Below are positions 12,391 through 37,374 of a DNA stretch of 64,000 nucleotides, piece by piece (the stretch's first letter is position 1; the number at the start of each line of letters is the position of its first letter). Both the position numbers and the translations under genes were made by a program. Source of the stretch: Candidatus Altimarinota bacterium. Lineage in GTDB: Bacteria > Patescibacteriota > Gracilibacteria > UBA1369 > GCA-2718715. The stretch covers positions 544,001 through 608,000 of the forward strand of contig JBESAV010000001.1 of assembly GCA_041242255.1 (NCBI GenBank). The letters are read 5' to 3'. Below the pieces are notes generated by a model. The model was not told where the DNA came from, did no database searches, and saw only the letters and a list, made by a program, of their open reading frames with translations.

Positions 12391-12840
12391 TTAGGCAATA
12401 TCTTTTAATATATCTTCAGCGTGAGTAGCAGTATTTACTTTCGGATATACTTTTTCAATCAATCCTTTCTCATCAATCACATAAGTAATTCTTTTTACAA
12501 ATCTTTTGCCAGCATCATTCGGTTCTTTCAAAGCTTCATAATCTTCAATCACAATCTGTTCAGGATCAGACAACAACGTAAATGGAAGCTCATACTTTGA
12601 TTTAAAATTCAAATGACTCTTTTGACCATCTTTGCTTACACCAAAAACCTTAATTCCAAATTTCTCTAAATCAGAGAAATTATCCCTAAAACTACAAGCT
12701 TCTTTAGTACAACCAGGTGTATTGTCTTTAGGATAAAAATAAAGCACCACCTTCTGCCCCTTGTAGTCTGACAACTTATGAATTGTTCCATTTTCATCAA
12801 CAAGATCAAAGTCCGGCGCCAAAGTTCCAACTTTCAACAT
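12391..12840 (-). CDS. bcp: peroxiredoxin Bcp
   Basis: YFYPKDNTPGCTKEAC motif. Confidence 0.95.
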   Translation of the reverse strand: MLKVGTLAPDFDLVDENGTIHKLSDYKGQKVVLYFYPKDNTPGCTKEACSFRDNFSDLEKFGIKVFGVSKDGQKSHLNFKSKYELPFTLLSDPEQIVIEDYEALKEPNDAGKRFVKRITYVIDEKGLIEKVYPKVNTATHAEDILKDIA

Positions 12841-13718: not shown

Positions 13719-13720
13719 GT

Positions 13721-20113: not shown

Positions 20114-20115
20114 AA

Positions 20116-20628: not shown

Positions 20629-20631
20629 GCC

Positions 20632-20955
20632 ATGAACTGGTTCTTCCCAATCCATTATTTCCTACACTTAATTTTCCCTGGAGTAGTTGCATACGCAGCT
20701 ACTCCTAAGCTTCCTCATAAATGGTGGAAAGTTTACATGGTTTTACTAGCAACAATGATCATCGACTTAGACCATCTCCTAGCGACACCAATCTTCGATC
20801 CAAATAGGTGCAGTATAGGTTTCCACCCACTTCATAGCCCAATAGCCATCGGAGTTTATGTCCTGATGATTTTCATCCCAAACTTCTGGGTTAGGGTAAT
20901 TGCCACAGGACTAATCTGGCATATTTTAGTCGACTTATTAGACTGCATGATATAA
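20632..20955 (+). CDS. DUF6122-like small membrane protein
   Basis: IDLDHLLATPIFDPNRCSIGFHPLHS. Confidence 0.75.
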   Translation: MNWFFPIHYFLHLIFPGVVAYAATPKLPHKWWKVYMVLLATMIIDLDHLLATPIFDPNRCSIGFHPLHSPIAIGVYVLMIFIPNFWVRVIATGLIWHILVDLLDCMI

Positions 20956-20979
20956 TTTAAATAAATTTAAAAATAAATA

Positions 20980-21429
20980 ATGAACAATTACAAAAAATTC
21001 GCTCTCATGATACTAAGCTCAAGCATTTTTATGTTTCTTGTAATGTATCTAAATATCTTCCAGTTATCTCATTTCTCGATAGGTCTAACACGAATCTACA
21101 TGACTCTCTTAATGGTAGCTCCTATGGTTTTAATCATGTTATTTTTCATGAAAGATATGTACAACAACAGCAAGTTTAATATAGCCATTATTTCAGGATC
21201 TATCGCCATCTTTATCATTAGCTTAATAGGTTTAAGGTCTCAGGTTTTAATAGGCGACATTCAGTGGATGAAAGCTATGATACCTCACCATTCTTCTGCC
21301 ATTCTAACAAGTTCTTACGCTAACCTAAAAGATCCAGAAGTCCAAGAATTAGCTCAAGAAATAATCCAAGCCCAAGAAAGAGAAATAGCAGAAATGAAAT
21401 CAATGATCGAACGACTTGAAGCAAAATAA
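20980..21429 (+). CDS. DUF305 (CopM-like) metal-binding membrane protein
   Basis: MKAMIPHHSSAI...IIQAQEREIAEM. Confidence 0.85.
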   Translation: MNNYKKFALMILSSSIFMFLVMYLNIFQLSHFSIGLTRIYMTLLMVAPMVLIMLFFMKDMYNNSKFNIAIISGSIAIFIISLIGLRSQVLIGDIQWMKAMIPHHSSAILTSSYANLKDPEVQELAQEIIQAQEREIAEMKSMIERLEAK

Positions 21430-21437
21430 ATATTGAA

Positions 21438-21464
21438 AAACCCTTTAATAGAAATTAAAGGGTT
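21438..21464. terminator. hairpin between convergent genes
   Basis: aaccctttaat...attaaagggtt inverted repeat. Confidence 0.65.
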
Positions 21465-21481
21465 GGTGTCTTCATCGACGA

Positions 21482-21814
21482 TCAATTAGAGAGATAAATT
21501 ATAAATTCTTGTTTAAGGAGCTCCAGCCTAGTACAAAGTATATTATGTTGACTAGATAAATCTCCATATGCAAGAATTGACTTAATGAAGGACAAATAAT
21601 CCAATAAATAATCATATGCATGGGCATATTTATTTGAAATTTCTTCATCATCTTTCATTAGTTCTGTTAACTCAATGATGAAGTCATTTCCAAGGTACTT
21701 GCTTGCTTCCTCGACAGTTAGTGCAGTAACCTTGAGATCCAAGTCACTTGTAAGTTTTTCCATTATGCTTCTGCCTTCACGAATTATAACTTCAAGATTC
21801 CTTTCCTCAGTCAC
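21482..21814 (-). CDS. hypothetical protein
   Basis: 110 aa; GTG start with GAGG Shine-Dalgarno; own consensus promoter. Confidence 0.6.
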   Translation of the reverse strand: MTEERNLEVIIREGRSIMEKLTSDLDLKVTALTVEEASKYLGNDFIIELTELMKDDEEISNKYAHAYDYLLDYLSFIKSILAYGDLSSQHNILCTRLELLKQEFIIYLSN

Positions 21815-21905
21815 TTTAAACCTCTCTTGTTGATGTAAATGAACTTAACAGTTGTAGTTTAAGCACGGCTCACCGACTTAATCTAATCAATCTGTTAACA
21901 TTTCG

Positions 21906-21933
21906 ATTATACAAGCCTGTGTAAGTTTGTCAA
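21906..21933 (-). promoter_or_regulatory. consensus promoter TTGACA-16-TATAAT
   Basis: Reverse complement reads ttgaca aacttacacaggcttg tataat. Confidence 0.75.
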
Positions 21934-21959
21934 GTAATGTGTTTATCTAAATAACTTAC

Positions 21960-22265
21960 ATGAGTTTTATCAAAGAATTAAGATTAGCACCTGAGAAAGG
22001 CTAAATGGATTGGTTAAATATAGAAAAGAACATATATTGATGAGTAAGAAGTAATTCTTGGGAGCAAGTCGAATCTTTAATTGTTAGTCCAGAAGCTGAC
22101 CTTTCAGCTAGTATCTATGTAGATGAACAAGAATTTATACAAAGCTATATTTCAGAGGATGTATTTGAAGACTCAGTTGTTAATTACGGTGACTGCACTA
22201 GGTCACAATTAAATGCCCTAGGAAGTAGGTTAGAATCAATCGTCAACAGCACTTTAGACAAATAG
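21960..22265 (+). pseudogene. probable pseudogene (102 codons, 3 internal stops)
   Basis: One frame reads MSFIKELRLAPEKG*MDWLNIEKNIY**VRSNSWEQVESLIV...STLDK*. Confidence 0.4.
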
Positions 22266-22312
22266 ATCTTTTGCTAGATGAGATTCAATACTAAGTAAAC
22301 CTAGTGTAGTAT

Positions 22313-23566
22313 GTGTTTACTTTATTTCAAAATACGTATTCTCACCCAACAACTATGACCAAAGCAAACCTATTCTCTCTAACAATCACATTAATTCTTT
22401 TCAGCATATCAGGCTGCACTTTTCAAGACCAAACCTCCAACACAAATGAAATCAACAAAAATCAGCCAGAGCTAACCAGCGAAATCACAACTCAAGAAAT
22501 AGATAGCATAAGCGCTGAGAAACCTGAAGAAACAGTAGAAGATTCAGATCAAAATCAAGAGCCAGAAGAGCCAGAATTTATTCTTCCTGACGTAGACTAC
22601 ACATCCCTACCAACCAAAGATGTGACTGTTGATTCTGTAAAGTTTTTCCAAGAACCAATAGAATTAGAAAGTATCGATGGATTAGAAAATACTGAGTTTG
22701 GTTATGTGACTGAGGGCAAATATAAAGATTATATTTTTGGTAATTCAAGAGAGTACTATCAGTTCAGTGATGCTCTGACTATGTTCTACTTGAGACCTCC
22801 AGATCAAAAGACTTTATATTACATTTCTGAATACCCTAGGTTTCAAGAAGAAAATCAAAGTATTTCAGATTTTAGTATTCCAAGTCTTGAGTTCCAAGAA
22901 GAAAGCATTACTGCCAAAGGTAACCAAATAACAACAGATGGTAGATTGTATTATGACAAGTATATAATAGATGAAATTCAAGATTATGAGACTGTAAGTG
23001 CAGAAGACACAGGTTACACCCTATACAAAGATGGTTGGGCCTTTTACAGAATCATTCAAGATGACTTTTATATTCTTTACCAATACATCCCTCAAGATGA
23101 AGAGCTAAAAAGCCTAATCGAATCTATGTCTAGCTTCGAAAACAAAAACCATTGGAGATACTTTTTAATGCAAAGGTATGACGATGGATATATCACAACA
23201 GTTAACACCGGATACATGGGACTATTTGATGACCAAGGTCTAATTCAAGGCAAAGAGAGTACTCTCAATTTCGATAACCTAGAGCTAATCCATGATGGTC
23301 CAGAACTAAATTTATACACAGTAAAAGAATTCCTAGATAATGAGGATTATGAGTCTCAACTTTTGCAAGAATTGTGGACAACATATCAAGATGATTTAGC
23401 ATCTATTTCAGCAAGTATAGCAAATGGAGAACAAAACATAAGAAATATTCCAAATGTACCAAAAGATGAATTCCTAACCATTAACCCTATGTTAATCCAA
23501 ACAGACAATATGGGTGAATTCTCAGTATACATACGCTCCGACATAGTTCAGCCATTTGAGGCTTAA
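22313..23566 (+). CDS. acidic putative lipoprotein
   Basis: Lipobox ISGC after a hydrophobic stretch; the real start may be the internal MTKAN. Confidence 0.7.
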   Translation: MFTLFQNTYSHPTTMTKANLFSLTITLILFSISGCTFQDQTSNTNEINKNQPELTSEITTQEIDSISAEKPEETVEDSDQNQEPEEPEFILPDVDYTSLPTKDVTVDSVKFFQEPIELESIDGLENTEFGYVTEGKYKDYIFGNSREYYQFSDALTMFYLRPPDQKTLYYISEYPRFQEENQSISDFSIPSLEFQEESITAKGNQITTDGRLYYDKYIIDEIQDYETVSAEDTGYTLYKDGWAFYRIIQDDFYILYQYIPQDEELKSLIESMSSFENKNHWRYFLMQRYDDGYITTVNTGYMGLFDDQGLIQGKESTLNFDNLELIHDGPELNLYTVKEFLDNEDYESQLLQELWTTYQDDLASISASIANGEQNIRNIPNVPKDEFLTINPMLIQTDNMGEFSVYIRSDIVQPFEA

Positions 23567-23609
23567 AATCAACGAATATACGACAAACGATACTTATTAA
23601 TCTAATTAG

Positions 23610-24287
23610 ATGAATATAATCAAACGATATTTGTACATAGCCATAGGCTTATGTACATATTCCTTGCTAGCAATACTAATTCCCAACTTTTTAGGTATAG
23701 AAACTAGTTCTCATGGAATAACTTTTGATGATTTTGATTTTTCCACTTTCTTATTAGTTTTTTTGGTTTTTATAATTTTGATATACAAAGCAATCTACAC
23801 TAAGTCAGAATACAAATACATTATTCTAATAACTTTTATGTATGCATTTTTGTTTGTTTCATATAGCACTCCTCGATTTCAAGTTATTGAATTATCCGAT
23901 CAACATAAAGATCGTAAGGTAAACGTGAATGGATCAGAGTCAGGTGCAATGAGTTATAGTTTCACTAATTTATATCCTGCAAATGATCAATATATAGTTA
24001 CTCATGAACCACCATTTACATTAATACATTCAAAAGTCGATCAACCATATAATCATGATTTAGAAGCTCAACCACACTGGTTAAATTCAAGGGTCTCAGG
24101 CTTTCCCTTTTTATGGTTCTTAGACCCGATTGGAGCTAGCGTACGTGCATCTATAAATTACCTACATTTCTTATTAAACATGATTGTTTATTTCATAGTC
24201 TTTTTAATTCCAAATCTTTTAACCAAGCTAATATTCCAAAAATTTACACCTTTAGTTTTTGGAGACCAAGATATAGAACATTCTTGA
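23610..24287 (+). CDS. hypothetical multi-pass membrane protein
   Basis: About 4 hydrophobic helices; GFPF motif. Confidence 0.65.
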   Translation: MNIIKRYLYIAIGLCTYSLLAILIPNFLGIETSSHGITFDDFDFSTFLLVFLVFIILIYKAIYTKSEYKYIILITFMYAFLFVSYSTPRFQVIELSDQHKDRKVNVNGSESGAMSYSFTNLYPANDQYIVTHEPPFTLIHSKVDQPYNHDLEAQPHWLNSRVSGFPFLWFLDPIGASVRASINYLHFLLNMIVYFIVFLIPNLLTKLIFQKFTPLVFGDQDIEHS

Positions 24288-24687
24288 TATTTTCTAATTT
24301 TTTTAGATAAGGCAAAACTTCCTTAGGAAACAAATTTATTTCTTCGACTTGATTTAAATCTATAATCTTAATATCAGTCAAAACTTGTTGCTTTTTTTCA
24401 GGATCAAAACCAAGCTTATAATTTTCATCGAGCGTTTTACAAAGTATATAAACTTCCAAACCAAAGCTTCCTTTATATTCTGTTTCTCTAACAAATACAA
24501 TTCTCTCAGCTTTAGCTTTTACATTTATTTCCTCATCGATTTCTCTCTCTATTGCTTCAAATAAAGATTCATTTCCTTCAACACCTCCTCCCGGAAAAAC
24601 ATAATTTGTACCAAAGGTATCGCTATCATGCCTCACCAAAACAATTTTATTTTCATTGATAATTATACCTCTTACTCCAACTTTCAT
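24244..24687 (-). CDS. NUDIX hydrolase
   Basis: Nudix box PGGGVEGNESLFEAIEREIDEE. Confidence 0.9.
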   Translation of the reverse strand: MKVGVRGIIINENKIVLVRHDSDTFGTNYVFPGGGVEGNESLFEAIEREIDEEINVKAKAERIVFVRETEYKGSFGLEVYILCKTLDENYKLGFDPEKKQQVLTDIKIIDLNQVEEINLFPKEVLPYLKKLENIKNVLYLGLQKLKV

Positions 24688-24773
24688 TTTCTAATTTAAA
24701 TTACATTAATCTTCTCAACCCCCAAACAAACTCATCCATAAATTTATCTTTCTTCATATCATTTTGAAAAACA

Positions 24774-24851
24774 GAAAAGTAGTATCAATAATTTAGAAAG
24801 AGACCTTCGCAAGTATAAAAAACATTTAAATCCAAACTCGGTTCACCAAAG
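24774..24851 (+). pseudogene. remnant of a serine recombinase 3' end with degenerate att core
   Basis: Aligns by eye to 37221-37300 at about 64/80 nt, ending cggttcaccaaag versus tggtgcaccagag. Confidence 0.8.
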
Positions 24852-24975
24852 TAGACACATTTCGAACTGAATATTATGAAGAAATTATTAATTTACAAAA
24901 GCTAACTTTAGAAAAATACAAAGTAATTAAATTAAAAAGTACTATCAGAGCTAACTTGTACATTTATTATTTCAA

Positions 24976-25524
24976 ATGCTAGACTGCAGTCAAATAAAAA
25001 ATGAAAAAATGAGAGTTGGAGTAGGATTACTTTTAGACGAAGATTGTCATAATTCGATTAGAGAATTGCAAATAAACCTTTTAAGTAGAGGTCTTATTAA
25101 GAGTCCATTTATTCAGGAACCACATATAACAATCAAGTCACCTTTCGAGATTTCTACTATTCAAAATTTAGCTAACTACTTAGATGAAAAATTTGATAAT
25201 ACAAAAGAGATCATTGTAAAAACAAGTTCTTTAGATTTATTTGATAAAAATATTTTATATCAAGCGGTATCAAAAAACAAAATTCTACTAGATTTACATT
25301 ATGATCTGATCAAGTTTTGTAATGATAAAGGTGAATATGAAGGAGAAAATAAAGTTTTTCACATAACGATAGGGAGATCATTATCGAAGCAAATATTAGA
25401 GGAACAGATTAAATTTAAAAAAAATACCTGCAGTTTAATAGGGGTCGGTATTTTTTTATATAACGAAGAAACTAAATCTTGGATTGTAGTTTACAAAAAA
25501 AAGTTTATTGATTCTGACAATTAA
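24976..25524 (+). CDS. 2H phosphoesterase (2'-5' RNA ligase/LigT-like)
   Basis: Two HxT motifs (PHITIK, FHITIG). Confidence 0.85.
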   Translation: MLDCSQIKNEKMRVGVGLLLDEDCHNSIRELQINLLSRGLIKSPFIQEPHITIKSPFEISTIQNLANYLDEKFDNTKEIIVKTSSLDLFDKNILYQAVSKNKILLDLHYDLIKFCNDKGEYEGENKVFHITIGRSLSKQILEEQIKFKKNTCSLIGVGIFLYNEETKSWIVVYKKKFIDSDN

Positions 25525-25569
25525 CAATAATATCATCATAGAGATTTAAATATATTTTTAAGAAAAAAG

Positions 25570-27348
25570 ATGAAGTTACAAGAAATTTTACAAGTTGAAG
25601 AGAGTTTAAGCATACCTGAACAAGTTAATCGTGGAGATTTAGAATCAATTCAATCAAAAATACATGAAAGGGTAAGGCTTGTTACGGCAGCACTACCGTA
25701 TATAAACAACGTACCTCATTTAGGGCATATGGCAGGGAGTCATATTCCAGCTGATATTTTTGCCAGGTTTTCAAGAATGAAAGGCTATAATACTAAATTT
25801 ATAGGTGGTTCAGATGAGCATGGAACACCATCTGAGTTGGCTGCTGATTCATTAGGTCTTAATCCTGAAATCTTTTGTGACAAACTCCATGAGGTACATA
25901 AACAAGTTTATGATTGGTTTGATATATCTTATGATTACTATGGTAGAACATCAGAGTATAGGCATAGTCAAATAGTTGAATCATTTTTTTTAGGTTTACT
26001 AGATAATGATTTTATAGCAGAGAGAGAAGAACATATGTTTTTTGATATAGAAAAAGATAGATTTTTACCTGGAAGATACGTTTTAGGTACATGTTCCAAT
26101 TGTGCCAGCACAAATATGCCATATGATCAATGTGATAACTGTGGGGTTCTTTTTAATACTGATAACTTCCTCGATCCAGTTTCAACCTTATCTAACAGTA
26201 CTCCTGAGATTAGAAGCACTAAGCATTTATTTATTGATTTACCACTTCTACAGCCAGTAATTGAAGATTGGTTTAAGAGTAAAAAAGACTGGAATACTCT
26301 AACAAGAGGAATTACAAGCTCCTGGCTTAATCAAGGTCTTGAGCAAAGAAGCATAACAAGGGACTTGAACAGAGGGGTTCATGTCAATTATCCAGGTTAT
26401 GAAGATAAAGTTTTTTATGTATGGTTTGAGGCTCCAATTGCATATGTTTCTTTTTCAGATTCAGTTGGTGAAATTCAAGAATTTTGGGAGTCCAATCAAA
26501 GTGAAGTTTTTCACTTTTTAGGCAAAGATAATATACCTTTTCATACTATAATATGGCCTTCTATTATAGAGGGTTCTAATATTGGAATAAATAAGCCTGA
26601 AAAAGTTATTGGTTATTCTTATCTGAATTATGAAGGAGAAAAATTCTCGAAGAGCAGAAATGTAGGAGTCTTTTGTGATAAGCTCTTAGAATCCGACTTC
26701 CCAGTTGATGTATTAAGAGCATATATAACGCTTATTTTACCTGAATCTTCAGACGCAAATTTTAACTGGGAAGATTTAGTTTCCAAAATTAACAATGAGG
26801 TAATAGCAAACTTTGGTAATTATATTAATAGAGTCTTATCCTTTTTATTTAAGAAAAAAGGGGGGCAGTTAGATTCAATCCAAGCAGAGGATTTTGATGA
26901 CTTAGATAGGAATTTTATACAAGATATTTTCAACCTATTTTTAGAAATTGATGCAGATTTAGAAGACTGTAATTTTAAAAAAGCATTTAAAGGTGTTTTA
27001 AGCTTATCCTCATTAGGAAATAAGTTTTTCCAAGATTCCAAACCTTGGAAATTTATTTCTGAAAATCCTGATTACGTAAATAGAAAATTATTTTTATGCG
27101 TTTATTTAATAAAGGTACTAGGAATTGTTTCATCCCCTTTTATACCAGAAACATCTAACACAATCATGAAAATGTTAGGGAAAGCAAATAGTAATTGGAT
27201 GGACGCCTTAGATTACAGTGATATCAGTGGTATAAAGATAGACAAAAACCCAGAGTTGCTCTTTAAAAGATTAGAAGATGATTTTATAGAGAGTATGAAA
27301 GATTCAACTGAAGGTCATACAAACCTAGCTAGCTATTTCTATGAATGA
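25570..27348 (+). CDS. metG: methionyl-tRNA synthetase (archaeal/eukaryote-like type), island-borne
   Basis: ALPYINNVPHLGH, GSDEHGTP, Zn knuckle CxxC..CxxC, YVWFEAP, GKDNIPFH, KFSKS. Confidence 0.9.
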   Translation: MKLQEILQVEESLSIPEQVNRGDLESIQSKIHERVRLVTAALPYINNVPHLGHMAGSHIPADIFARFSRMKGYNTKFIGGSDEHGTPSELAADSLGLNPEIFCDKLHEVHKQVYDWFDISYDYYGRTSEYRHSQIVESFFLGLLDNDFIAEREEHMFFDIEKDRFLPGRYVLGTCSNCASTNMPYDQCDNCGVLFNTDNFLDPVSTLSNSTPEIRSTKHLFIDLPLLQPVIEDWFKSKKDWNTLTRGITSSWLNQGLEQRSITRDLNRGVHVNYPGYEDKVFYVWFEAPIAYVSFSDSVGEIQEFWESNQSEVFHFLGKDNIPFHTIIWPSIIEGSNIGINKPEKVIGYSYLNYEGEKFSKSRNVGVFCDKLLESDFPVDVLRAYITLILPESSDANFNWEDLVSKINNEVIANFGNYINRVLSFLFKKKGGQLDSIQAEDFDDLDRNFIQDIFNLFLEIDADLEDCNFKKAFKGVLSLSSLGNKFFQDSKPWKFISENPDYVNRKLFLCVYLIKVLGIVSSPFIPETSNTIMKMLGKANSNWMDALDYSDISGIKIDKNPELLFKRLEDDFIESMKDSTEGHTNLASYFYE

Positions 27349-28795
27349 TGTTTTAAGTAATAATTATAGAAAATGGCTTCACGAAGTTTTAGACTTATCT
27401 ATAGATTTCAAATTAGATAGTAGAGTTAACAAAAAAATAATATCCAATAGTGACATTAAAAAACTTTTAGCAAGAAAGTTACCATTTGAAGGAATAGATC
27501 TTGATGATATTTTAGATAGTTTTAAAACAGAAGTTATGCCATTTTGCACCAACTTTTCATCTAAAAACTTTATGGGATTCCCAGATTCAGGAAACTCTGT
27601 TGCAGCATTGGGAGCTTCAATTATAAAAGATTTTTTTCAACAAAATATAATAAATCAATCTTTTTGTTCACCCTCGGGAACATTTATAGAGATAAATGTT
27701 ATAAACTGGTTAAGAGATTTAATTGGTTATGAAACGAAAGATAACATATCAAGTATTATGGATGTGGGAGGTATTATCACAAACGGTGGAACTATGAGTA
27801 ATGCTATAGGTATTATGTTAGCACGTGAAAATAAGTCTCCCAATACACTTGCTAACGGCGTAAAGGCACCATCAAGATATAAGATAATTGTTCCAAAAGG
27901 TATTGGTCACTACAGTGTCAAATCCGCTCAGATGTGGCTTGGATGTGGTAACAATTTAATTGAAGTTCCAACTATCAATTTCAAATATGACTTAGAAAAA
28001 CTCAAAGAGGCACTTAATAATAATAAGGGTAATGTAATGGGGTTAGTAGCTTATGCTGGAGATAGTAGAACAATGACATGCGATGATTTTGATGAAATTT
28101 ACAACCTTGTGAAATCTATTGATGAAAATATATGGTTGCATGCTGATGCATGTCATGGGTTTTCCTTAAGTTTTAGCGAGCAGTTAAAAGAGAAAATTAA
28201 AGGTATCAATAAATTTGATAGTATAACAATTGATCCTCATAAGGTTATGTTAACTCCATATGTAATTAGTGCCATTTTAGTTAAAGATCCTGCTAAACTT
28301 AAAAGTGTTTCCTCTATATCTGACTTAATAATGAAGGAGCAATTCGCATTTGGTCAAATAACTCCATTCATAGGAAGTAAGTCTTGGGAGTCATTAAAGT
28401 TATGGTTTATGATGTTAAATTATGGAAAAGAAGGTTTACAAAATATGGTAAATGAAAGACACAATAGGGCAAAGTACTTACATGAAAAAATTAAAGAAAA
28501 TGAGAATTATATAACTCTTAATGAAGTAGACATTAATTCAGTAATGTTTATGGTTAAACCAAGTAAATGGGATGGTGATATTATTAAACTAAATAATTTT
28601 AATAGAAAAATTTACGACAAAATAATAGAAGATGGTTTATATTATTTACATACATTTCCAATTGAAGATTCAGGCGTTATATCTAAAGGAGAAACTCTAA
28701 AACCTCTAAGATATATGTCTGGAAATCCAAATTTAAAAGAAAAAGATATAGATGATATGATTAATTACATTGAAAAAATAAGTAAAAGTTTATAA
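27341..28795 (+). CDS. group II PLP-dependent amino-acid decarboxylase
   Basis: GGTMSN, GHYSV, WLHADACHG, SITIDPHK (PLP lysine), LKLW. Confidence 0.9.
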   Translation: MNDVLSNNYRKWLHEVLDLSIDFKLDSRVNKKIISNSDIKKLLARKLPFEGIDLDDILDSFKTEVMPFCTNFSSKNFMGFPDSGNSVAALGASIIKDFFQQNIINQSFCSPSGTFIEINVINWLRDLIGYETKDNISSIMDVGGIITNGGTMSNAIGIMLARENKSPNTLANGVKAPSRYKIIVPKGIGHYSVKSAQMWLGCGNNLIEVPTINFKYDLEKLKEALNNNKGNVMGLVAYAGDSRTMTCDDFDEIYNLVKSIDENIWLHADACHGFSLSFSEQLKEKIKGINKFDSITIDPHKVMLTPYVISAILVKDPAKLKSVSSISDLIMKEQFAFGQITPFIGSKSWESLKLWFMMLNYGKEGLQNMVNERHNRAKYLHEKIKENENYITLNEVDINSVMFMVKPSKWDGDIIKLNNFNRKIYDKIIEDGLYYLHTFPIEDSGVISKGETLKPLRYMSGNPNLKEKDIDDMINYIEKISKSL

Positions 28796-29508
28796 TGTTA
28801 GAATCTATAATAGATACGTTAGAAACGCAGCCCTTCCCTACTATTATATATGGCTCTTTTGCAACAGATAACAATACACAAAAATCAGATTTAGATTTAT
28901 TCTTTATAGATGATACAACAGACTCAGACGAAAACTTTGAATCTTTACTTTGCCTAGTTTTAGATATTCATTCTCGTCATGGCCTAAAAATAGACAATGA
29001 GGTACCTTATAAAAATAAACTAATAGTAAATAGTTTAGATTTAAGAAAATCTTTAAGGAGCGAAGGATTTAACATTTCTAATGATGATTTATACATCCCA
29101 GAAATAGAAAAAAGTCATACTTTTTTAAATTCTTATAAAGTAAGATTAAGATTAATATTTAATGCTTTTACAACTCCACACATTATATTAAATTGTTTGG
29201 ACGAGAGCTTATCTGAAATGAGAAGTAGTTTTGAAATTAAATTAGTCTTAATTCTATTAGCGCTACACTCATCACAAGAAAAAATTACTTTTTCTTCTCT
29301 ATTGCATAAAGCTTTATATTCGGAAGCAGGAGCATCTGAAGACATGTATTTAGGCTATAAAATCAATGAAACTGTAATTAATAATCTAAAGATGATAATT
29401 TCAAGCACATTAAAAAAACTTGAAAATACTGGGATTGTTTGTTTGACGAAAAATCAAATAGTACTTACAGTTGATAAGGAAGAATTACTCTCTATTATAA
29501 AAAGTTAA
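28795..29508 (+). CDS. Pol-beta-like nucleotidyltransferase domain protein
   Basis: IIYGSFA...SDLDLFFI motif; TAATG coupling to the upstream gene. Confidence 0.8.
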   Translation: MLESIIDTLETQPFPTIIYGSFATDNNTQKSDLDLFFIDDTTDSDENFESLLCLVLDIHSRHGLKIDNEVPYKNKLIVNSLDLRKSLRSEGFNISNDDLYIPEIEKSHTFLNSYKVRLRLIFNAFTTPHIILNCLDESLSEMRSSFEIKLVLILLALHSSQEKITFSSLLHKALYSEAGASEDMYLGYKINETVINNLKMIISSTLKKLENTGIVCLTKNQIVLTVDKEELLSIIKS

Positions 29509-29512
29509 TATT

Positions 29513-30412
29513 ATGGAAAGACCTTTTGATTATTCTATATCTAGTGAAGGAATAGTAAAATCATTCGATTTTGATTATGATTTAATCCAAAGTAGGGGTG
29601 ATCAAATTGGGGTTAGTAAATTGATAAGTAATCCAGTATTTGTAGTGGGATCACCAAGGTCAGGCACAACGGTTTTAGGAAATGTATTATCTTTACATGA
29701 CAGGATAGGTACTGGGGAAGAATCTTTATTTTTACTTCATCTTTTTAGAATTTTTTCAGATCTTCACAAAGGAGATAATAGAAGAAAAACCAGAAATCTA
29801 TCTGAATATATCGAAGAAGATGATTTATTATTAAATATGCAAGAATTTTCAGATAGGATAATGGGTAGTTTACTCCAAAGAAAAAACAAAGATATTTATC
29901 TTGATCATACTCCTTGGTATGGATCAATTTCTGGATTTATAAAATTATTGTATTCTGATTCAAAATTTATACATATAATTAGAGACGGACGTCAAGTGGT
30001 ACGCTCTTTAGGAGAATCATACAACAAAGGTTTTTCGTGGGCTGGTAAAAGTTTTGAGCATAGAGTAAAGATTTGGGTTTCTCAAGTTCAAAATTGTTCC
30101 AAAATGCAGCAACATTTTGAAAGTGATTATTTAGAAGTTTATTATAATACACTTCATGATACTCCTCTTAGTTTATTCAACAGTATATTTTGTTTTTTAG
30201 GTTTAGAAAATAATGATGAAATATTAGATGGGCTATCCGTTAGCTATGCCACTCCAGTTTCAGGAATTACTAAAGAAGAGATGAGTGTTGGTTATGACAA
30301 TAATGGATGGCCTCAGAATTGGACTAGTGAAGAAATAGATACATTTTATTGCTTAGCCTCTGATTTAATGGAAGAAAAGTTTGGTGACAAATGGGATACC
30401 ATCTATATATAA
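29513..30412 (+). CDS. PAPS-dependent sulfotransferase
   Basis: 5'-PSB motif VVGSPRSGTT and 3'-PB motif IIRDGRQVVRS. Confidence 0.9.
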   Translation: MERPFDYSISSEGIVKSFDFDYDLIQSRGDQIGVSKLISNPVFVVGSPRSGTTVLGNVLSLHDRIGTGEESLFLLHLFRIFSDLHKGDNRRKTRNLSEYIEEDDLLLNMQEFSDRIMGSLLQRKNKDIYLDHTPWYGSISGFIKLLYSDSKFIHIIRDGRQVVRSLGESYNKGFSWAGKSFEHRVKIWVSQVQNCSKMQQHFESDYLEVYYNTLHDTPLSLFNSIFCFLGLENNDEILDGLSVSYATPVSGITKEEMSVGYDNNGWPQNWTSEEIDTFYCLASDLMEEKFGDKWDTIYI

Positions 30413-30530
30413 GTTTCAAAAAACTTTTAACTAGTTATTATTTCTATTTAATAACACACAAGTATTCACTATATTGTTATTAAATCATACTCTAACTTTA
30501 TATTTTTATAATCTGTATTTAAACTTTTAA

Positions 30531-30762
30531 ATAGAATTACACAGTGTTTATGACGAAAAAGTTTTGTACATAGCCAAAAAACCGTTCTGCTACATCATCA
30601 AATGTAACAACATGTCGGACTGGTGCTCAGAAACTCATCTCTCTTGAACCAATGATAAAGCACTTAATCACCACAGATATGACAGAGTTTATGTCTGTAG
30701 ATACTAGCAAATGCTATGCATTAATAGAGGACCACCAAAAAGAATTAGAGGTAATATTTTAG
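30531..30762 (+). other. att junction: recombinase 3' remnant joined to displaced tail of the intact recombinase
   Basis: Left half reads IELHSVYDEKVLYIAKKPFCYIIKCNNMSDW. Core TGGTGC is at 30621-30626. Right half is open for 46 codons (GAQKLISLEP...EVIF*) in the same register as recombinase codons GA. Confidence 0.65.
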
Positions 30763-30829
30763 ATAGCATAGAGGAATAGTCATTATTATCTTCTAAGTAG
30801 GCATTAATAAGCAGGGGTATTCTTAAACC

Positions 30830-32059
30830 TTATAGTCTCTTATTCACTTTATTAAATATTTCTTGACTATATTTATTTGTAGATTTTAGTTTAGAGAGGT
30901 AGTAAACATATTTTGTAGTGTATTCTTGTATATGAAATTTATATGCATATTCTTTTACTAAGACATACAAGTCACTAGTTAATGAATTAATTTTATCACA
31001 ATCACTTAACGCTCTTATAGTATCTTGATGGTTAATGATTGTATCCATAATTTCTTTAGTAACTGTATATAGTGAATTATATTCATCATTAAAAAATTTT
31101 TCAGTACTGCTGACACTTGATTCTACTAGATTATTTAGATGTACATGCATTATTTTCCATATACCTTCACCTAGTGATATTAAGTATCCAGAAGTATTAT
31201 TATTTACACTCTTTAACATTTGTTTATAGATATCTAAAAATCTAATAAAATGTAATGTATCACTAAAGACAGCATATTGGCTATCATGTATTGAGGAATA
31301 TATTTCATGCTTTAGAAATCGTGGGCCTAGTAGAAATTCTTTTGCATAAATATCATCATTATCGAATAGTATAGAGTCTTCATTTAATATAGATCGATGT
31401 ACAATTGATATAACAAGATTATCAATTGGGTCAGTATATCTTAAATCAGGATTACATTCTAATCCCATATATATAGAAAATATGAATTCTTGTGAGTCAA
31501 CTACTACATAATCCATAAATTTTTCATTACTTGGTATTACCCAAGATAGAATTGAATACAAGTTATCTTCTGTAGAGTTAACAACAATTTGATCTATGTT
31601 GAAAATAAATAAATCTACTACATTTAAGAATCTATTTTTAGATTTATAACTAATTTCATCAAATATAAAACGCTTAAGTTTATCTTTATCTATAAAGTTA
31701 AAATCCAAATGCCTGGTAGTAGAAAAGTGAATGAAAATAATTAACCCAATGATTAAAAATAAGAAAATGATCATATCCAATACAACTATAAATAATGGAT
31801 TTATAACTAAGGCATACAAATTTTCATATCTTAAAATTATAAACGGAAAAAACAATGCTAGGTACTTAAAAATTAGAACAATTAGGGCCATGCCTGTCCA
31901 AAAAAATAAAGCTTGGTTTATTAGCTTCTTATATAGACTCATCCTAAATTTCCACTCATTAGTTCTAAGCTGATATGCTGCTAATACAATACCAATAACT
32001 GTCACAAAGCCTATTAGATCTATTCCTATATAAGAATTTAGTAACTCATTTCGAATCAT
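30830..32059 (-). CDS. hypothetical membrane protein (3 N-terminal TM helices + helical domain)
   Basis: 409 aa, extremely AT-rich; downstream of and co-oriented with the OLD gene. Confidence 0.65.
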   Translation of the reverse strand: MIRNELLNSYIGIDLIGFVTVIGIVLAAYQLRTNEWKFRMSLYKKLINQALFFWTGMALIVLIFKYLALFFPFIILRYENLYALVINPLFIVVLDMIIFLFLIIGLIIFIHFSTTRHLDFNFIDKDKLKRFIFDEISYKSKNRFLNVVDLFIFNIDQIVVNSTEDNLYSILSWVIPSNEKFMDYVVVDSQEFIFSIYMGLECNPDLRYTDPIDNLVISIVHRSILNEDSILFDNDDIYAKEFLLGPRFLKHEIYSSIHDSQYAVFSDTLHFIRFLDIYKQMLKSVNNNTSGYLISLGEGIWKIMHVHLNNLVESSVSSTEKFFNDEYNSLYTVTKEIMDTIINHQDTIRALSDCDKINSLTSDLYVLVKEYAYKFHIQEYTTKYVYYLSKLKSTNKYSQEIFNKVNKRL

Positions 32060-32153
32060 AATATAGTGCGATTGTTAAAATAGATCTAGCTAGGGCTTTA
32101 TAAATTTATAGTCTTTTTTGTACATGTCATAGTTTAAATTTTAATATCAAATA

Positions 32154-33815
32154 TTAAGTTAGCTTAATATGGTTAGCTTTAGCAATGATAGAGCAAATAT
32201 TATCCATTTTATCTGAAACATCATACAGATCTTTAAGGTTATCCTTTGTAAAATATTCTACAAAATTCTTAGCATATTTAATTTTATTTGCTTTTAATTT
32301 TTCCCCTTCTCCTTTCGATATTTTATCCAAAGTATTAGCTATTGGGGTAAATCGACGAGGCTGTTGGCTAATCAGCTTATCGTAAAAAGATTCGAGTGAT
32401 TCTTTAGGAATGTAGTTTTCTGTTTCCTTACCATGAGTAATCCACAGATAAAAATTGTTTTCTTTTTTATATGCTTCTTTAATACTATTAACTCTTTTTT
32501 TGAGAGGGTCATTAGTGTTTTTTTTATCGCTATCGCATATAACTATAGAATTTCGATTTGCTTTTAAAATCGAAAGTTTTTCGTCAGGTATTTCTTCATC
32601 AACTCCGTAATGTGCAAGTAATGATCGAGCTGTAAATAAAAATTGATAATGAATATTCTCTATTAATTTACCATCAGAGAAAATATCTAACATTTTTTTA
32701 TAGTAAATTCTATCGGATGGACCCTCAACCCATATAACTGCATTTGACTGTAATATATCACTAGCCTTTGCTCCAATATCATCTATCACTAAAGAGTGAC
32801 TACTATAGTTTAATACATTTGATAGGATTGTCTTTGAACCTTCTTTATATAAATGAATTAGATTTGTATTTTTATCTCCAGAAAAGAAGTTAATAGTCAC
32901 AGGTGAATGTGTTGTTAAAATGAAAGTACAACCTTGTTCACTTAGTTTTTTTATGTAATGCAGAATATTTCTCTCCAGGTTAGGATGAGTATTGTTTTCT
33001 AATTCCTCCAATAAAAAAATACAGTTCGTAATCTTCTTTTTTGTAATATCTGGACCTAAAATTGTCACTACCAATAAAAATAAAACAGTTTTTATTCCGC
33101 TACCTGTATTTGAAATGGGTATAAATTCGCCATTTTCTGTTTCCAGTCCTATTTCCCATAAATCAGTACCTTTTTGATTAAAAACCCTTATGTCAGTATA
33201 TTTAGAATCTGGCGAAACAATTTTATTTAATTCTTTTAAAAGAGTTTCTGTTACCAGTTTATACCTTGCACTCCCATATACTTCTTCCTGCAGGTACAAC
33301 CTTATAATATTTGTTATGCCAGTTCCGTTTGATTTGATTGTAAGTTTATTAAAATTTGGACCACTAACAGAACTAATAAAAATGTTATTTTTTTGTTCGC
33401 TTATGATGTTTCGGTCAGCATCAATTCTAAAACCTATTAAATTGTTTAGCTTATTATCTAATTTATTTAAGATTTTTTTTTGCTCATTATTCGTAAGTTC
33501 ATCAAATTTTATATTATTACCTCCATTATATAATTGAGATTTAACATAGTAGTTAACTGGTATAATATCATTCACAGAATTAAGTACTTTAACTGATTCA
33601 GAATCAATATCATCTTTTTGTATTGTTAAATAGAGTTTAGCCCCATTCGTCCTAATTTCTTTATCTAACAACTGTTCTATTGCATCTAGATAGGTGCTTT
33701 TACCTACATTATTTTTACCGATAATCAGATTTATAGGCAAAATACTTTGAATATTTTCTTCTTCAAAGTTTAACCCTTTGTATTTTTTAACTCCAATAGA
33801 AATTTGTAACGACAT
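32154..33815 (-). CDS. OLD-family ABC ATPase-TOPRIM nuclease (probable anti-phage)
   Basis: Walker A GKNNVGKS; GSG signature; LEELENNTHP; TTHSP; TOPRIM WVEGPSD and CDSD. Confidence 0.88.
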   Translation of the reverse strand: MSLQISIGVKKYKGLNFEEENIQSILPINLIIGKNNVGKSTYLDAIEQLLDKEIRTNGAKLYLTIQKDDIDSESVKVLNSVNDIIPVNYYVKSQLYNGGNNIKFDELTNNEQKKILNKLDNKLNNLIGFRIDADRNIISEQKNNIFISSVSGPNFNKLTIKSNGTGITNIIRLYLQEEVYGSARYKLVTETLLKELNKIVSPDSKYTDIRVFNQKGTDLWEIGLETENGEFIPISNTGSGIKTVLFLLVVTILGPDITKKKITNCIFLLEELENNTHPNLERNILHYIKKLSEQGCTFILTTHSPVTINFFSGDKNTNLIHLYKEGSKTILSNVLNYSSHSLVIDDIGAKASDILQSNAVIWVEGPSDRIYYKKMLDIFSDGKLIENIHYQFLFTARSLLAHYGVDEEIPDEKLSILKANRNSIVICDSDKKNTNDPLKKRVNSIKEAYKKENNFYLWITHGKETENYIPKESLESFYDKLISQQPRRFTPIANTLDKISKGEGEKLKANKIKYAKNFVEYFTKDNLKDLYDVSDKMDNICSIIAKANHIKLT

Positions 33816-33867
33816 AATTGAGTTTTATATTGATGACAGAATACCATTTTCCTGCTAGATTATAAAT

Positions 33868-34004
33868 GTCGCACAACTAGGAATTTTAAGCCACATAAGG
33901 TGCTCCCTTGTTTATATGAACAAAGGTGGGCATCTAGCCATATAGGCATACCTTTGTGGTTACCTAGTTGGGCGACCTAGGTGCCCTCTTTTGGAATTAC
34001 CTAG
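33868..34004 (+). ncRNA. candidate structured RNA / 5' leader
   Basis: Nested stems gtcgc-a-caactagg/cctagttg-g-gcgac and agccaca-t-aaggt/acctt-tgtggtt enclose two hairpins. G-U pairs favour the + strand. An ATGACA-17-TGcTAGATT promoter-like sequence lies just upstream. Confidence 0.55.
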
Positions 34005-34029
34005 CAGATCATTAATCTAATTTATAATT

Positions 34030-35334
34030 ATGTCACAACCTGTATTTACAAGTAAGTATTTTGATATCTACAAAGATAGGATAGAGATCAAAATGTTCTT
34101 AAATAAAGACACTATTTTTATTTCCTCTATACACAGTATGAGAAAAAGACTCGGTGGGATTAAAGTTCATACCAGTGGAAAAGATTATATTCTCCCTCAT
34201 AAAAATCCTGCAAAAGTAATTGAAGTAATATCAAAGCTAAAAAATGGCGAGGAAGTTATAATCGAAGAGAAAAAGAAAGTAAAAACTAAGAAGGTTCAAG
34301 AAGCTACAAATCAAGAAAGTAACCCAACAAAAGAAGATAATACAGTCTGGTACAAGACATGGTGGTACATGTGTATTCTTTTTTTCTTTACGATAGTATT
34401 ATGGTTTATTACCATACCAGTTTATACGTATTTGGCTTACTCAAATAAAGATAAAGAAGACGGTCCACACTACAAGAAAGTTTTAACTGCATTGGTAGTA
34501 TTTTCTATTTTAATAGTTCTACCTGTTAGTTGTAGTCAATCATTACAAGAAGATGAAGCTATGTCTTCGATTGAAGTTATGATACAAGAAGGACGACTAG
34601 ATGATGCGGCTGATAGTATGATTAGTACTCAGTATAAATACTCAGATAGATACAAGGCATTAGCTAAAGAACTTAATTACGCTGCACCATCATATGCAAA
34701 GGTTTTATTGCTATCTCTTACTGATGACCAGATTAAAGATTTAGAGTCTGGTACATTAGCTATAAATAAATCAAGTTACAGCACTATAAATGATAGATTG
34801 AAAGAGAACCTTAATACACTTTTACCTGATTTAGAGGAGATACAGAAAGAACATGATCAACTTGCCTTACTTAATAAATTAGGTGAAATAGAGTACAGTG
34901 TTATCCAAAAAGATGAATACAAAAATCATGATGTATATGTACTAGAAGTTCCTAATGTTATAAACCAAACAGTCCTGGAGTCCTTTGCTAGAAGCTTCGA
35001 GGAAAACCTTTGTGAAAGAGATTGTTTCATCAATCTATATAGTATTGAAGATGCATATTGGACCAGAGAAAAGAAAAGCGATTTAGGAAGTGCTTTTATG
35101 GATGAGTCAGCTGATTTGGTTATATCAGGGCAAATATCACAAGAAGAAGTTTTAATAAGAAATAGAAGGTATCTTCTGGAGTTAGATGAAGAATACTTAG
35201 AATATATAGCAACAAACCACATAGGAAGGTTGGAGCTAGATTTTAGTGGAGGGCCATCTATTTACTATCCATATCCAATAATATCTGATCTTGACTTACT
35301 CGATGAAAGAAGACAGGAATTAGAGAACTTATAA
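34030..35334 (+). CDS. membrane protein with N-terminal PH-like domain and extracytoplasmic region
   Basis: Short beta-rich N-terminus; WYKTWWY followed by two TM segments; cargo of element A. Confidence 0.65.
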   Translation: MSQPVFTSKYFDIYKDRIEIKMFLNKDTIFISSIHSMRKRLGGIKVHTSGKDYILPHKNPAKVIEVISKLKNGEEVIIEEKKKVKTKKVQEATNQESNPTKEDNTVWYKTWWYMCILFFFTIVLWFITIPVYTYLAYSNKDKEDGPHYKKVLTALVVFSILIVLPVSCSQSLQEDEAMSSIEVMIQEGRLDDAADSMISTQYKYSDRYKALAKELNYAAPSYAKVLLLSLTDDQIKDLESGTLAINKSSYSTINDRLKENLNTLLPDLEEIQKEHDQLALLNKLGEIEYSVIQKDEYKNHDVYVLEVPNVINQTVLESFARSFEENLCERDCFINLYSIEDAYWTREKKSDLGSAFMDESADLVISGQISQEEVLIRNRRYLLELDEEYLEYIATNHIGRLELDFSGGPSIYYPYPIISDLDLLDERRQELENL

Positions 35335-35377
35335 GAAGTTAAACACATAATCTTAAATTGAATATAGCTTACAAAAT

Positions 35378-35410
35378 AAAGCACTCTGGCTTCATGCAGT
35401 GTGCTTTTTA
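35378..35410 (+). terminator. probable terminator
   Basis: aaagcac...gtgctttt inverted repeat after ORF 34030. Confidence 0.55.
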
Positions 35411-35563
35411 TCATCCACTTCTTATAACTTTACTTATACATAAGTATATATAAACACATATGTGCTCAATGCCATACAGTTGTACTTAAAATGCAATAAA
35501 TAGAGCCAAAATGGCCACTTATATATGCTACAATGCACCCATATTATTTAACTTTTACATTCC

Positions 35564-35728
35564 ATGTCAGATACCAATGACAACAATGTTTACAATGCTA
35601 TCGAAGTGATCCGCAATGCAGGAACAAATCCTGACGGTCCCGATGGTGTTGTTGATAGTAGTGGAGATTATGTGAAGTTCGACCAAAACAGACGTCGGAC
35701 CTCTATCTCCAGAGATCAACAATGGTAA
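35564..35728 (+). CDS. small unannotated ORF (54 aa) upstream of recombinase
   Basis: MSDTNDNNVYNAIEVIRNAGTNPDGPDG...QQW*; preceded by a TGcTACAAT extended -10 at 35526-35534. Confidence 0.45.
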   Translation: MSDTNDNNVYNAIEVIRNAGTNPDGPDGVVDSSGDYVKFDQNRRRTSISRDQQW

Positions 35729-35764
35729 GCATAAAATGTAGAATTTAATTAGGTACAATCATCA

Positions 35765-37309
35765 ATGAAATGGGTAATTTATGTTAGAAAGTCTAGTGAG
35801 GACGCAAACAAACAGGTAAGGTCCCTCAAAGACCAAATCAAGGTATGCCAAGAACTAGCAAAAAGGGAAGGCTACAATGTTGTAGAGGTATTCCAAGAGA
35901 TAAAGTCTGCTAAAAAATCGGGTAATAGACCAGAGTTCAACAGAATGTTAGATGGTTTAAGGCAGAACAAATATCAAGGAATACTATCATGGGCACCCGA
36001 TAGACTTTCTAGAAACATGAAGGAAGCAGGGGAGATCATCGATATGCTCGACAATGAAGTTATCCTCGATCTAGACTTTGCAGCACACGCATTCGTTAAT
36101 GATTATAATGGGCTAATGACGTTAGGTATTTCCTTTGTGATATCAAAGCAATATTCTGATAGGTTAGCCCATAACATCTCCAGAGGTAACAAACAAAAAC
36201 TAAAAGAAGGTAAGCATTTAGGTCGATATGTACACGGGTATATAGCTGATGATGTTACACAGCATTACCAGATAGATGAACGTATTGCAGAGAATGGAAA
36301 GACATTTTATGAGCTGATAAAAGAAGGATTCCAAATGCGACTAAAAGGTAACTCCTTAGCAACCATCACCAAATACATCAATGATAATGGGTACTATAGA
36401 GAGACTAAGCAAAGCAAAACTATCCAAAAAATGACACAGGGAAAACTAAGCAATATGTTTAAGGACCCAATATACTATGGAGAGATTCATACATATGAAG
36501 AACCGATAGACCTTGTAGAGATACATTGCTTTTTACCAATGATCACAAAAGAGGAATACGAGATGCTACAAGACTATAAACCAACCGGTATCAGTTCACA
36601 TACACATAATTGGCCATTCATAGAGCTAGTTAAATGTGGAGACTGTGATTGCAATATGCGTGCAGGTAAATCTACATCAGGGACAGGGCAGAAGTATTTG
36701 TATTACTGGTGTGAAAATAAAGAGTGTGGAGATAAAAGAAAGAAACAAGGCAAGACAAAGTTCCCTACTATCAGAGCAAAGGTTGTTATAGAAGCCTTAC
36801 AAAATGCTCTAGCAGATCTAAATCTAGATAAAGCTATATACAAGAACTATGGAACACAATACGCAGAGGAGGTCCATAAGTACAAAACAAATATTGCCAC
36901 ACAAAAGAGAGCAGCTAGAAGAGCCCTTAATAACTTCGAGAAGAAAAAAGAAGAGCTAGAGTTCAAAAAGATACGTGATGGGCATTCATGGTCCAAATCA
37001 GAGCAAGCTAGATACAATAAAGAGATAAAGTTCTACAACAAAAAGATCAACACCTTAACTAGGAATATTGATGATCTAGAAAAATCTATGCCAAAAGAAG
37101 TAGACCTAAAAAGTTTCTTGAACTCGTTGAATATGGCTTCTACAAGGTTTCCTCGATATGATTTAGAGACGATGGACTCATTAGCCAAAAATGTGTTCTT
37201 GAACTTAGTTGTTAAGGACGGAAAAGTAGCATCAATAAGCTATAAAGAGCCCTTTGCAAGTATGCCAAAAACGGCTAAATCCAGACTTGGTGCACCAGAG
37301 AGGACTTGA
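35765..37309 (+). CDS. large serine recombinase (resolvase + recombinase + Zn-ribbon + coiled coil)
   Basis: YVRKSS catalytic Ser, RPEFNRM, DRLSRN, CGDC...YYWC; last codons overlap tRNA-Leu. Confidence 0.95.
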   Translation: MKWVIYVRKSSEDANKQVRSLKDQIKVCQELAKREGYNVVEVFQEIKSAKKSGNRPEFNRMLDGLRQNKYQGILSWAPDRLSRNMKEAGEIIDMLDNEVILDLDFAAHAFVNDYNGLMTLGISFVISKQYSDRLAHNISRGNKQKLKEGKHLGRYVHGYIADDVTQHYQIDERIAENGKTFYELIKEGFQMRLKGNSLATITKYINDNGYYRETKQSKTIQKMTQGKLSNMFKDPIYYGEIHTYEEPIDLVEIHCFLPMITKEEYEMLQDYKPTGISSHTHNWPFIELVKCGDCDCNMRAGKSTSGTGQKYLYYWCENKECGDKRKKQGKTKFPTIRAKVVIEALQNALADLNLDKAIYKNYGTQYAEEVHKYKTNIATQKRAARRALNNFEKKKEELEFKKIRDGHSWSKSEQARYNKEIKFYNKKINTLTRNIDDLEKSMPKEVDLKSFLNSLNMASTRFPRYDLETMDSLAKNVFLNLVVKDGKVASISYKEPFASMPKTAKSRLGAPERT

Positions 37310-37374
37310 ACCTCCACCCAGCTAAGCCGGACTAGCCCCTCAAGCTAGCGCGTCTACCATTCCGCCACTGGTGC
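37288..37374 (-). tRNA. tRNA-Leu(GAG)
   Basis: GCACCAGTGGCGGAATGGTAGACGCGCTAGCTTGAGGGGCTAG...GGTTCAAGTCC...GGTGCACCA; long variable arm; encoded CCA. Confidence 0.97.

Follow-up and report, generated by a model that had tools for sequence, protein, structure and literature searches.

In the Myxococcus xanthus phage Mx8, the attachment site of the phage (attP) lies in the integrase coding sequence, and integration gives the gene a new 3′ end and yields an altered protein that is active with changed properties (PMC6070905, PMC4383910). In BPs/Brujita-type mycobacteriophages, attP is reported to lie in a gene whose C-terminus and switch state change on integration (PMC3694055), and in SSV-type archaeal integrases the recombination site is likewise reported to fall within the integrase open reading frame (ORF) (PMC7253208). 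The locus described here is an integrative element in a 64,000-nt stretch of the genome of Candidatus Altimarinota bacterium (GenBank assembly GCA_041242255.1, contig JBESAV010000001.1, forward-strand positions 544,001 to 608,000; hereafter the window). It encodes a large serine recombinase (LSR) whose C-terminus is very probably swapped when the element integrates into a tRNA-Leu(GAG) gene.

According to the 2014 Islander paper, no serine integrase was known to use a tRNA gene as its target (PMC4383910), and the passages of the tycheposon preprint that report LSRs in 27 of 937 elements make no mention of a C-terminal change. Two further observations concern the C-terminus itself. Engineered fusions of an integrase with a recombination directionality factor (RDF) indicate that a polypeptide on the integrase C-terminus can set reaction direction (PMC5737554), and the extreme C-terminus of phiC31 integrase is reported to lie at the interface between the zinc-ribbon domain (ZD) and the RDF. 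A full-text literature search, supplements not included, turned up no LSR described as having attP within the 3′ end of its gene.

The tRNA-Leu(GAG) element and its attachment sites

The source genome is a single contig of 1,000,477 bp with 36.4% guanine plus cytosine (GC), in which the LSR gene is present in a single copy; no LSR remnant was found elsewhere within the window. The protein matches the Pfam families Resolvase (PF00239, 2.2e-21, residues 4-150), Recombinase (PF07508, 1.7e-08) and Zn_ribbon_recom (PF13408, 1.2e-06), all of them serine-recombinase domains, with no sign of tyrosine recombinase chemistry. Because the catalytic residues R8 and S10 and four cysteines (C291, C294, C316 and C321) are invariant in an alignment of 30 sequences, the enzyme of the window is considered intact. 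A roughly 100-residue insert in its zinc-ribbon domain probably forms a coiled coil.

The two ends of the element (Table 1) are marked by copies of the hexamer TGGTGC. At the right end, this core falls in codons 508-510 of the LSR gene; read on the other strand, it comprises the CCA of tRNA-Leu(GAG), the discriminator base and two bases, the first ones, of the acceptor stem. Because the tRNA gene lies on the opposite strand, the last 22 nt of the LSR ORF are antisense tRNA, and the protein ends ...KSRLGAPERT, as the original prediction had stated; its stop codon (37307-37309) is the TGA inside TTGAA, the antisense of the T-loop. The element can have contributed at most the last 6 nt of the tRNA gene, and no second copy of the 25-nt 3′ part of the tRNA was found with up to 3 mismatches allowed. 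Since the crossover falls within these last 6 nt, integration leaves the tRNA body untouched, and, unlike tyrosine-integrase islands, the element has no piece of the tRNA to carry.

The attL core sits on the expected strand in a 417-bp gap between two convergent genes. Continuing the LSR frame across it opens a replacement C-terminus in register, composed of GA and 44 further residues ahead of the next stop, which bears out the predicted 44-residue extension. The heptamer TTGAACC follows the core on both sides, again as foreseen, at 30644-30650 (+21..+27 from the centre of the core, the P′ half-site of attL reaching +27) and at 37306-37312 (+16..+22); the spacing from TGGTGC to TTGAACC is 17 nt at 30621 and 12 nt in the tRNA. 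With attP straddling the end of the recombinase gene, the enzyme must have one C-terminus in the integrated element and another in the excised one.

In the proposed mechanism, the LSR would insert the element into the extreme 3′ end of tRNA-Leu(GAG) by strand exchange within TGGTGC, most likely with GT as the central dinucleotide. In the excised state, the LSR gene would run through the P′ arm for 44 more residues, and in the integrated state it would run into the tRNA and stop after PERT at the TGA antisense to the T-loop TTCAA. The P′ arm carries the T-arm heptamer TTGAACC 5 bp further out, the register expected of an LSR zinc-ribbon domain on attP as compared with attB. According to a preprint, the ZD of phiC31 integrase contacts positions ±17-27 in attP and ±12-22 in attB, and this 5-bp shift underlies discrimination between the sites. 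The T-arm heptamer is read as the ZD motif because its GT-centred positions, +16..+22 in B′ and +21..+27 in P′, fit the phiC31 registers. As +5 equals +2 modulo 3, the same displacement converts the TGA stop of attR into Leu/Phe-Glu in attP (x-TGA becoming xTT-GAA). Scans for promoters and terminators returned fewer promoter-like sites than in shuffled sequence and about equal numbers of terminator-like sites.

Related elements and recombinase C-termini in CPR bacteria

Relatives of the LSR carry the names of Peregrinibacteria, Saccharibacteria and other lineages of the candidate phyla radiation (CPR), and of 301 genomes sampled from the phylum, 88 have a relative at E ≤ 1e-60, counted on the LSR match alone, whatever the tail. 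Among the best 120 of 475 homologues, nearly all C-termini are antisense tRNA (...GGPGWT, ...GRGDRT, ...GARERT and the read-through ...ERTRTFDLTVPNRARYQLRHTP). The remaining minority of these 120 carry tails of about 45-55 residues that contain an x-L-E-P-like motif and close with aromatic or hydrophobic residues, so that a check for GA...LEP-type tails in homologues, suggested with the original prediction, gave a positive answer both here and in the in-frame attL tails described below.

Eighty-nine loci were examined at the DNA level, 80 from species genomes and 9 from metagenomes. The LSR stop lies within an antisense tRNA at 66 of them (Pro 39, Leu 17, Met 6, Val 2, Ile 1 and Tyr 1); the other 23 are mostly cut by contig ends or lack a tRNA call, and several nonetheless show tRNA-like peptide ends. 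The 66 tRNA-ending genes share an identical reading phase in 64 cases, use the T-loop TGA as stop in 49 and have GT at core positions 3-4 without exception. For each locus, the 6-nt core was sought upstream and the locus's own T-loop 7-mer (at most 1 mismatch) was scored at shifts from -8 to +15 relative to its position in the tRNA. The resulting profile has 19 matches at +5 and 0-2 at each other shift, with 1 match at +5 in the downstream control and 0 in the reverse-complement control. All 19 of the +5 sites open an in-frame tail of 44-55 codons, the other two frames being open for 0-37 codons, and two additional loci (L173 and L181) show the same layout with weaker motif matches.

Eleven further genomes yielded 5 more attL/attR pairs, including one with a tRNA-Ala target and another at tRNA-Leu(GAG); of the rest, 5 had no attL by the search pattern and 1 was an array. 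The delimited elements span 3.0-9.3 kb, and in most pairs the identity between attL and attR is limited to core positions 1-6. The design is common to a large LSR family of CPR bacteria (Patescibacteria) targeting tRNA-Pro, Leu, Met, Val, Ile, Tyr and Ala. In one tRNA-Pro element (L170, 608-666), 12 nt of the tRNA-Pro 3′ end (TGGTCGGGGTGA) are repeated at a distance of 29 nt upstream of attL, which may be the scar of an earlier event.

Both forms of the protein occur in the family. One protein cluster at ≥90% identity contains five short forms of 531 residues ending ...NGRGERT or ...NGRGGGI, together with eight long forms of 560-577 residues that are the same as these up to ...NGR and part from them precisely at the core; the bodies of one such cluster bear five or more types of tail. 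A contiguous long form, P0060, has a body 82-87% identical to the LSRs of five delimited elements (L166-L170) and a tail that matches those stored at their attL sites, and its contig, at 5,039 nt, is of element size. With the P0060 tail as query, only 2 cluster representatives were retrieved. In tail codons 10-36, beyond the 27-bp half-site, dN (nonsynonymous change) is below dS (synonymous change) in 15 of 15 pairs, with 97, 80 and 167 differences at the first, second and third codon positions, indicating that the tail is kept as protein. Across 24 attL tails, the sole invariant column is Glu9, encoded by the GAA of the T-loop mimic. Together with the anatomy of the window and the +5 register of the family, the short and long forms of the cluster lend good support to the central claim of the original prediction, namely that attP lies inside the recombinase gene and that each state of the element encodes a different C-terminus.

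Other explanations were set aside. A phage origin was rejected, viral contigs having no close relatives; the best 'viral' match (L106) is itself an LSR ending in tRNA-Gly. On that IMG/VR contig, the distant LSR relative (8726-10465) ends ...CGAG in antisense tRNA-Gly and the contig start bears another tRNA-Gly; this has the look of an integrated element and not of the genome of a phage. A role of the tail as an ssrA-like degron is also unlikely, as the tmRNA tag of the organism ends ...AQPVAA and the window tail ...EVIF. The possibility that the B arm is a relic of an older P arm was likewise discarded, there being neither an LSR remnant in the window nor a meaningful alignment.

Table 1. Coordinates and properties of the element, its attachment sites and its genes in the window
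Feature	Position	Strand	Remarks
Integrative element	30621-37293		6.67 kb, delimited by two TGGTGC copies
attL (B / core / P′)	30602..30650	+	core TGGTGC 30621-30626; probable GT centre 30623-30624; outer limits putative
attR (P / core / B′)	37264..37312	+	core TGGTGC 37288-37293; centre GT 37290-37291; outer limits putative
Displaced 3′ end of recombinase gene	30622..30762	+	46 codons (GA + 44 residues, ...ELEVIF) and stop 30760-30762; LSR frame across core
LSR, integrated short form	35765..37309	+	514 aa, ends ...KSRLGAPERT; last 7 codons and stop from core/antisense tRNA
tRNA-Leu(GAG), integration target	37288..37374	-	intact, CCA encoded; Rfam tRNA 54.4 bits
54-aa ORF directly upstream of LSR	35564..35728	+	candidate regulator or RDF; positional counterpart of family small protein
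Cargo, hydrophobic protein	30830..32059	-	409 aa, no family match
Cargo, AAA_15/AAA_21 ATPase	32154..33815	-	553 aa, AriA/GajA/OLD defence-ATPase-like; AAA_15 6.8e-18, AAA_21 3.6e-17
Cargo, protein	34030..35334	+	434 aa, no family match

The cargo of the window element comprises the three proteins listed in Table 1, of which the ATPase additionally matches the defence proteins AriA (9e-19), GajA (5.3e-16) and Old (9.9e-13). No recognised repressor was found by Pfam among the proteins of the element. In related elements, the cargo includes Mrr, DUF4238, T5orf172, CHAP, Fic, DUF4145, SDR and methyltransferase genes, and one element has a tyrosine integrase. None of the 20 cargo proteins scanned, out of 36 with at least 160 residues, was recognised as serving replication or transfer.

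A small acidic protein of 46-108 residues with a conserved C-terminal motif (L.EL.E.LQ.VD..SP.AKLN.TSISDNNGGRI.L) is encoded in 16 of 20 delimited elements (for example, L167 9757-9960), usually 20-45 nt upstream of the LSR and on the same strand. The family has no Pfam match, its Atlas scores do not exceed 0.85 and its structural model has a pLDDT (predicted local distance difference test score) of 0.44. The ORF of the window that occupies this position resembles the family weakly and non-significantly (hmmsearch E 2.6 among 126 ORFs). From its placement and conservation, the small protein is a candidate RDF or regulator. The earlier statement that no recognisable RDF gene is present is therefore weakened and no longer safe, given a conserved small ORF upstream of so many LSRs and a likewise placed ORF in the window.

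On the genomic surroundings, four relatives (G002, G003, G005 and G008) have tRNA-Leu(GAG) adjoining the same methyltransferase-like gene as in the window and, on the other side of the tRNA, a homologue of window 12391..12840. Because the relatives place this homologue beside the tRNA, the DNA from 12.9 to 30.6 kb appears to be additional variable DNA, distinct from the LSR element. It amounts to about 17.7 kb (12900-30620) that is extra relative to these genomes, with a GC fraction of 0.28-0.35 and near-zero GC skew, and carries genes for TrmB-like regulators, a multicopper oxidase cluster (17781-21429) and an operon (24976-30412) encoding a LigT-like protein, a methionyl-tRNA synthetase (MetRS) paralogue, a pyridoxal phosphate (PLP) decarboxylase, a nucleotidyltransferase and a sulfotransferase. 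The MetRS is considered an accessory copy because a second MetRS, 24% identical, is encoded at genome position 858542-859951. Elsewhere in the window, at 47233-47262, an unoccupied tRNA-Val 3′ end has B-type geometry (TGGTGC, 12 nt, TTCGAAC) and could be a secondary target of the LSR family.

Competing explanations and the direction of recombination

Several results weigh against the C-terminal swap as read here. Neither a circle (37293 to 30621) nor a join skipping the element was present in contigs of four runs, contigs being prone to drop rare forms. The P and B arms are, judged by eye, only weakly dyad-symmetric to P′ and B′. The cluster to which the window LSR itself belongs has 6 members, every one a short form, and no protein with a window-like tail was found in a 5.8-billion-sequence set, where a search for longer proteins gave 2 candidates, none of which scored. 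The window tail is not recognised by a hidden Markov model (HMM) of 30 tails, falling outside the best 12 of 13,575 genome ORFs; aligned by hhalign to the 24 attL tails, it gives 7 columns at a probability of 0.8%, and BLASTP against the tails of the nearest long-form relatives (P0004 and P0002) returned nothing significant. What it has in common with the other tails is limited to position, frame, length, the L-E imposed by the att site and a hydrophobic or aromatic end. In one run (X4, one contig at depth 4.5), a T replaces G at 30742, changing GAA to TAA and placing a stop at tail codon 41; the substitution lies 48 nt from the contig end and may be an error. Finally, those long forms with readable DNA (L176, L178 and the P0140 junction) are chromosomal tandem arrays or hybrids and not demonstrated circles.

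Some minor contigs from these runs touch the right end of the element. A 394-nt contig (run X1, record 5), at a depth of 4.5 where the main path has 20, enters the tRNA 3′ end (37283-37312) from DNA that is absent from the genome and has in common with the P arm the 5 nt (AGACT) that precede the core. Its source may be a strain in which the element has decayed or in which something else is inserted at this tRNA. Short contigs at a depth of about 3 (X1 record 3 and X2 record 10) share the 31 nt at 37259-37289 with 1 mismatch and differ from the flanks on both sides. This 31-nt stretch corresponds to the P half-site up to core position 2.

The window tail lacks sequence similarity to other tails, and TGGTGC by itself is at chance level (22 matches in the window against 13.6 expected). 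The match at 30621 might thus be a coincidence and its open frame meaningless, the true left end of the island lying near 12.9 kb. Between about 14 kb and 37 kb, the window is atypical in both GC content and GC skew, and in one relative (G008) the homologue of window 12391..12840 adjoins the tRNA-Leu 3′ end, as this explanation would have it. It is nonetheless very improbable. The composite TGGTGC-N17-TTGAACC occurs once against 0.01 expected, with any match in 1 of 100 shuffles, and it does so between two genes, on the strand required, and in the exact +5 register and frame of 19 + 5 independent elements; a frame open for at least 46 codons has a probability of 0.028-0.045 in non-genic frames. 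The spacing at attL became interpretable only once relatives had been compared. The resulting element, at 6.67 kb, fits the family range, whereas neither a tRNA-Leu fragment nor an LSR remnant is present near 12.9 kb, and since the flanking protein of the relatives is just 37-44% identical, the extra 17.7 kb can have been acquired separately. A different objection accepts the attachment sites and holds that long forms arise only as hybrid junctions, in which the P arm of one element meets the P′ arm of the next within tRNA tandem arrays, and not from a free circle. Such arrays exist at tRNA-Pro (L176 1605-8038, L178 798-6784 and, similarly, L208): in L176 and L178, a long-form LSR with a P/P′ junction lies about 4.5 kb upstream of a 5′-truncated LSR fused to tRNA-Pro, with about 4 kb of cargo between them. 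The L178 LSR is split into two ORFs, and LSR1 of L208 ends one codon past the core. Long forms are found on contigs of up to 713,570 nt, and P0140, which is 32% identical to P0060 in the body/overall and 73% in the tail, is a hybrid in which similarity begins exactly at the core (...GR/VGAIN). That junction shows recombination at the core, but it also shows that some long forms are hybrids; because similarity switches there, tails and cargo appear to be exchanged between recombinases sharing the tRNA-Pro target. An origin of all long forms in arrays is still quite unlikely, since single non-array elements keep an intact, selected attL tail, which makes sense only if the P/P′ junction is formed and translated, and since P0060 joins the body and tail of the same element type on its element-sized contig.

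What the swap does is a separate matter. The two isoforms presumably differ in activity or regulation, with the state of the element setting the form of the enzyme, and it is possible, if doubtful, that the swap affects directionality, as the original prediction had supposed. An unlikely but specific version of this idea is a self-contained direction switch residing in the att geometry, in which the long LSR of the circle would integrate but not excise and the short LSR of the integrated element would excise, alone or with the co-transcribed small protein. In that case, each state would encode the isoform that leaves it, without regulated RDF expression, and a module of P′, tail and cargo could be reshuffled between recombinases of the same tRNA target. 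The competing explanation, considered somewhat unlikely, is that the swap is real but incidental, direction being set by the separate small protein upstream of the LSR, and that the tail has another role (stability or contact with a host factor) or little role at all. It draws on the recurrence of the small ORF and its motif in the delimited elements, on the matching position of the 54-aa ORF, and on the exchange of tails between bodies, seen in P0140/P0060 and in the several tail types per cluster, which argues against a tightly co-evolved contact of tail and body. Because the small protein appears to be co-transcribed with the LSR, however, differential expression of an RDF is an unlikely switch and would not by itself give direction, and it is for the same reason conceivable that the tail modulates the response. 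The small ORF also matches nothing in Pfam or the Atlas, its counterpart in the window is a non-significant match, and the tails are not neutral, as they are kept open and under purifying selection.

Relation to known systems

Known large serine integrases usually target protein genes or intergenic sites. The LSR of the window resembles those of phiC31, Bxb1 and A118/LI in having Resolvase, Recombinase and zinc-ribbon domains with a (here probable) inserted coiled coil, short att sites and a 5-bp shift of the ZD motif between attP and attB. In the known integrases, attP is described as lying beside the integrase gene, not inside it, and excision as needing a separate RDF. Classical tRNA islands of the Islander type carry a displaced 3′ fragment of the tRNA; here the identity amounts to 6 bp only, and P′ imitates the T-arm at another spacing. 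Against this background, the features that set the family apart are an enzyme C-terminus that would be rewritten by integration state, a conserved tRNA 3′ end as target, a T-loop that doubles as ZD motif, and natural pairs of short and long forms. They belong to cargo elements that are abundant in CPR bacteria and very small (3-9 kb), in a group whose mobile elements are poorly known; the cargo includes defence-like genes.

When DNA is to be inserted irreversibly, serine integrases are the usual tool, and structural work is actively asking what determines the direction in which they act. The natural short/long pairs would permit a direct test of whether a C-terminal appendage sets direction without a separate factor. 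The engineered integrase-RDF fusions differ from these pairs in being man-made and in favouring excision, whereas in these elements it is the excised state, the one that has to integrate, that would have the appended form.

In integration-dependent immunity, a C-terminal degradation tag of the repressor is lost on integration. The BPs/Brujita-type systems split a repressor and use a tyrosine-type integrase, whereas here it is the recombinase itself that is split. In SSV-type viruses, integration breaks the integrase gene into two pieces, both inactive; in the LSR elements, only about 45 residues at the C-terminus would be exchanged, and the domains for catalysis and DNA binding would remain complete. 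In its logic, the closest analogue is Mx8, whose IntP/IntX pair similarly reflects a crossover inside the integrase ORF and a new C-terminus on integration. The Mx8 integrase is a phage tyrosine recombinase, whereas the enzyme considered here is the LSR of 3-9-kb cargo elements and not a member of the Mx8 family, and in these elements it is the antisense tRNA that supplies the new end and the T-loop that supplies the stop.

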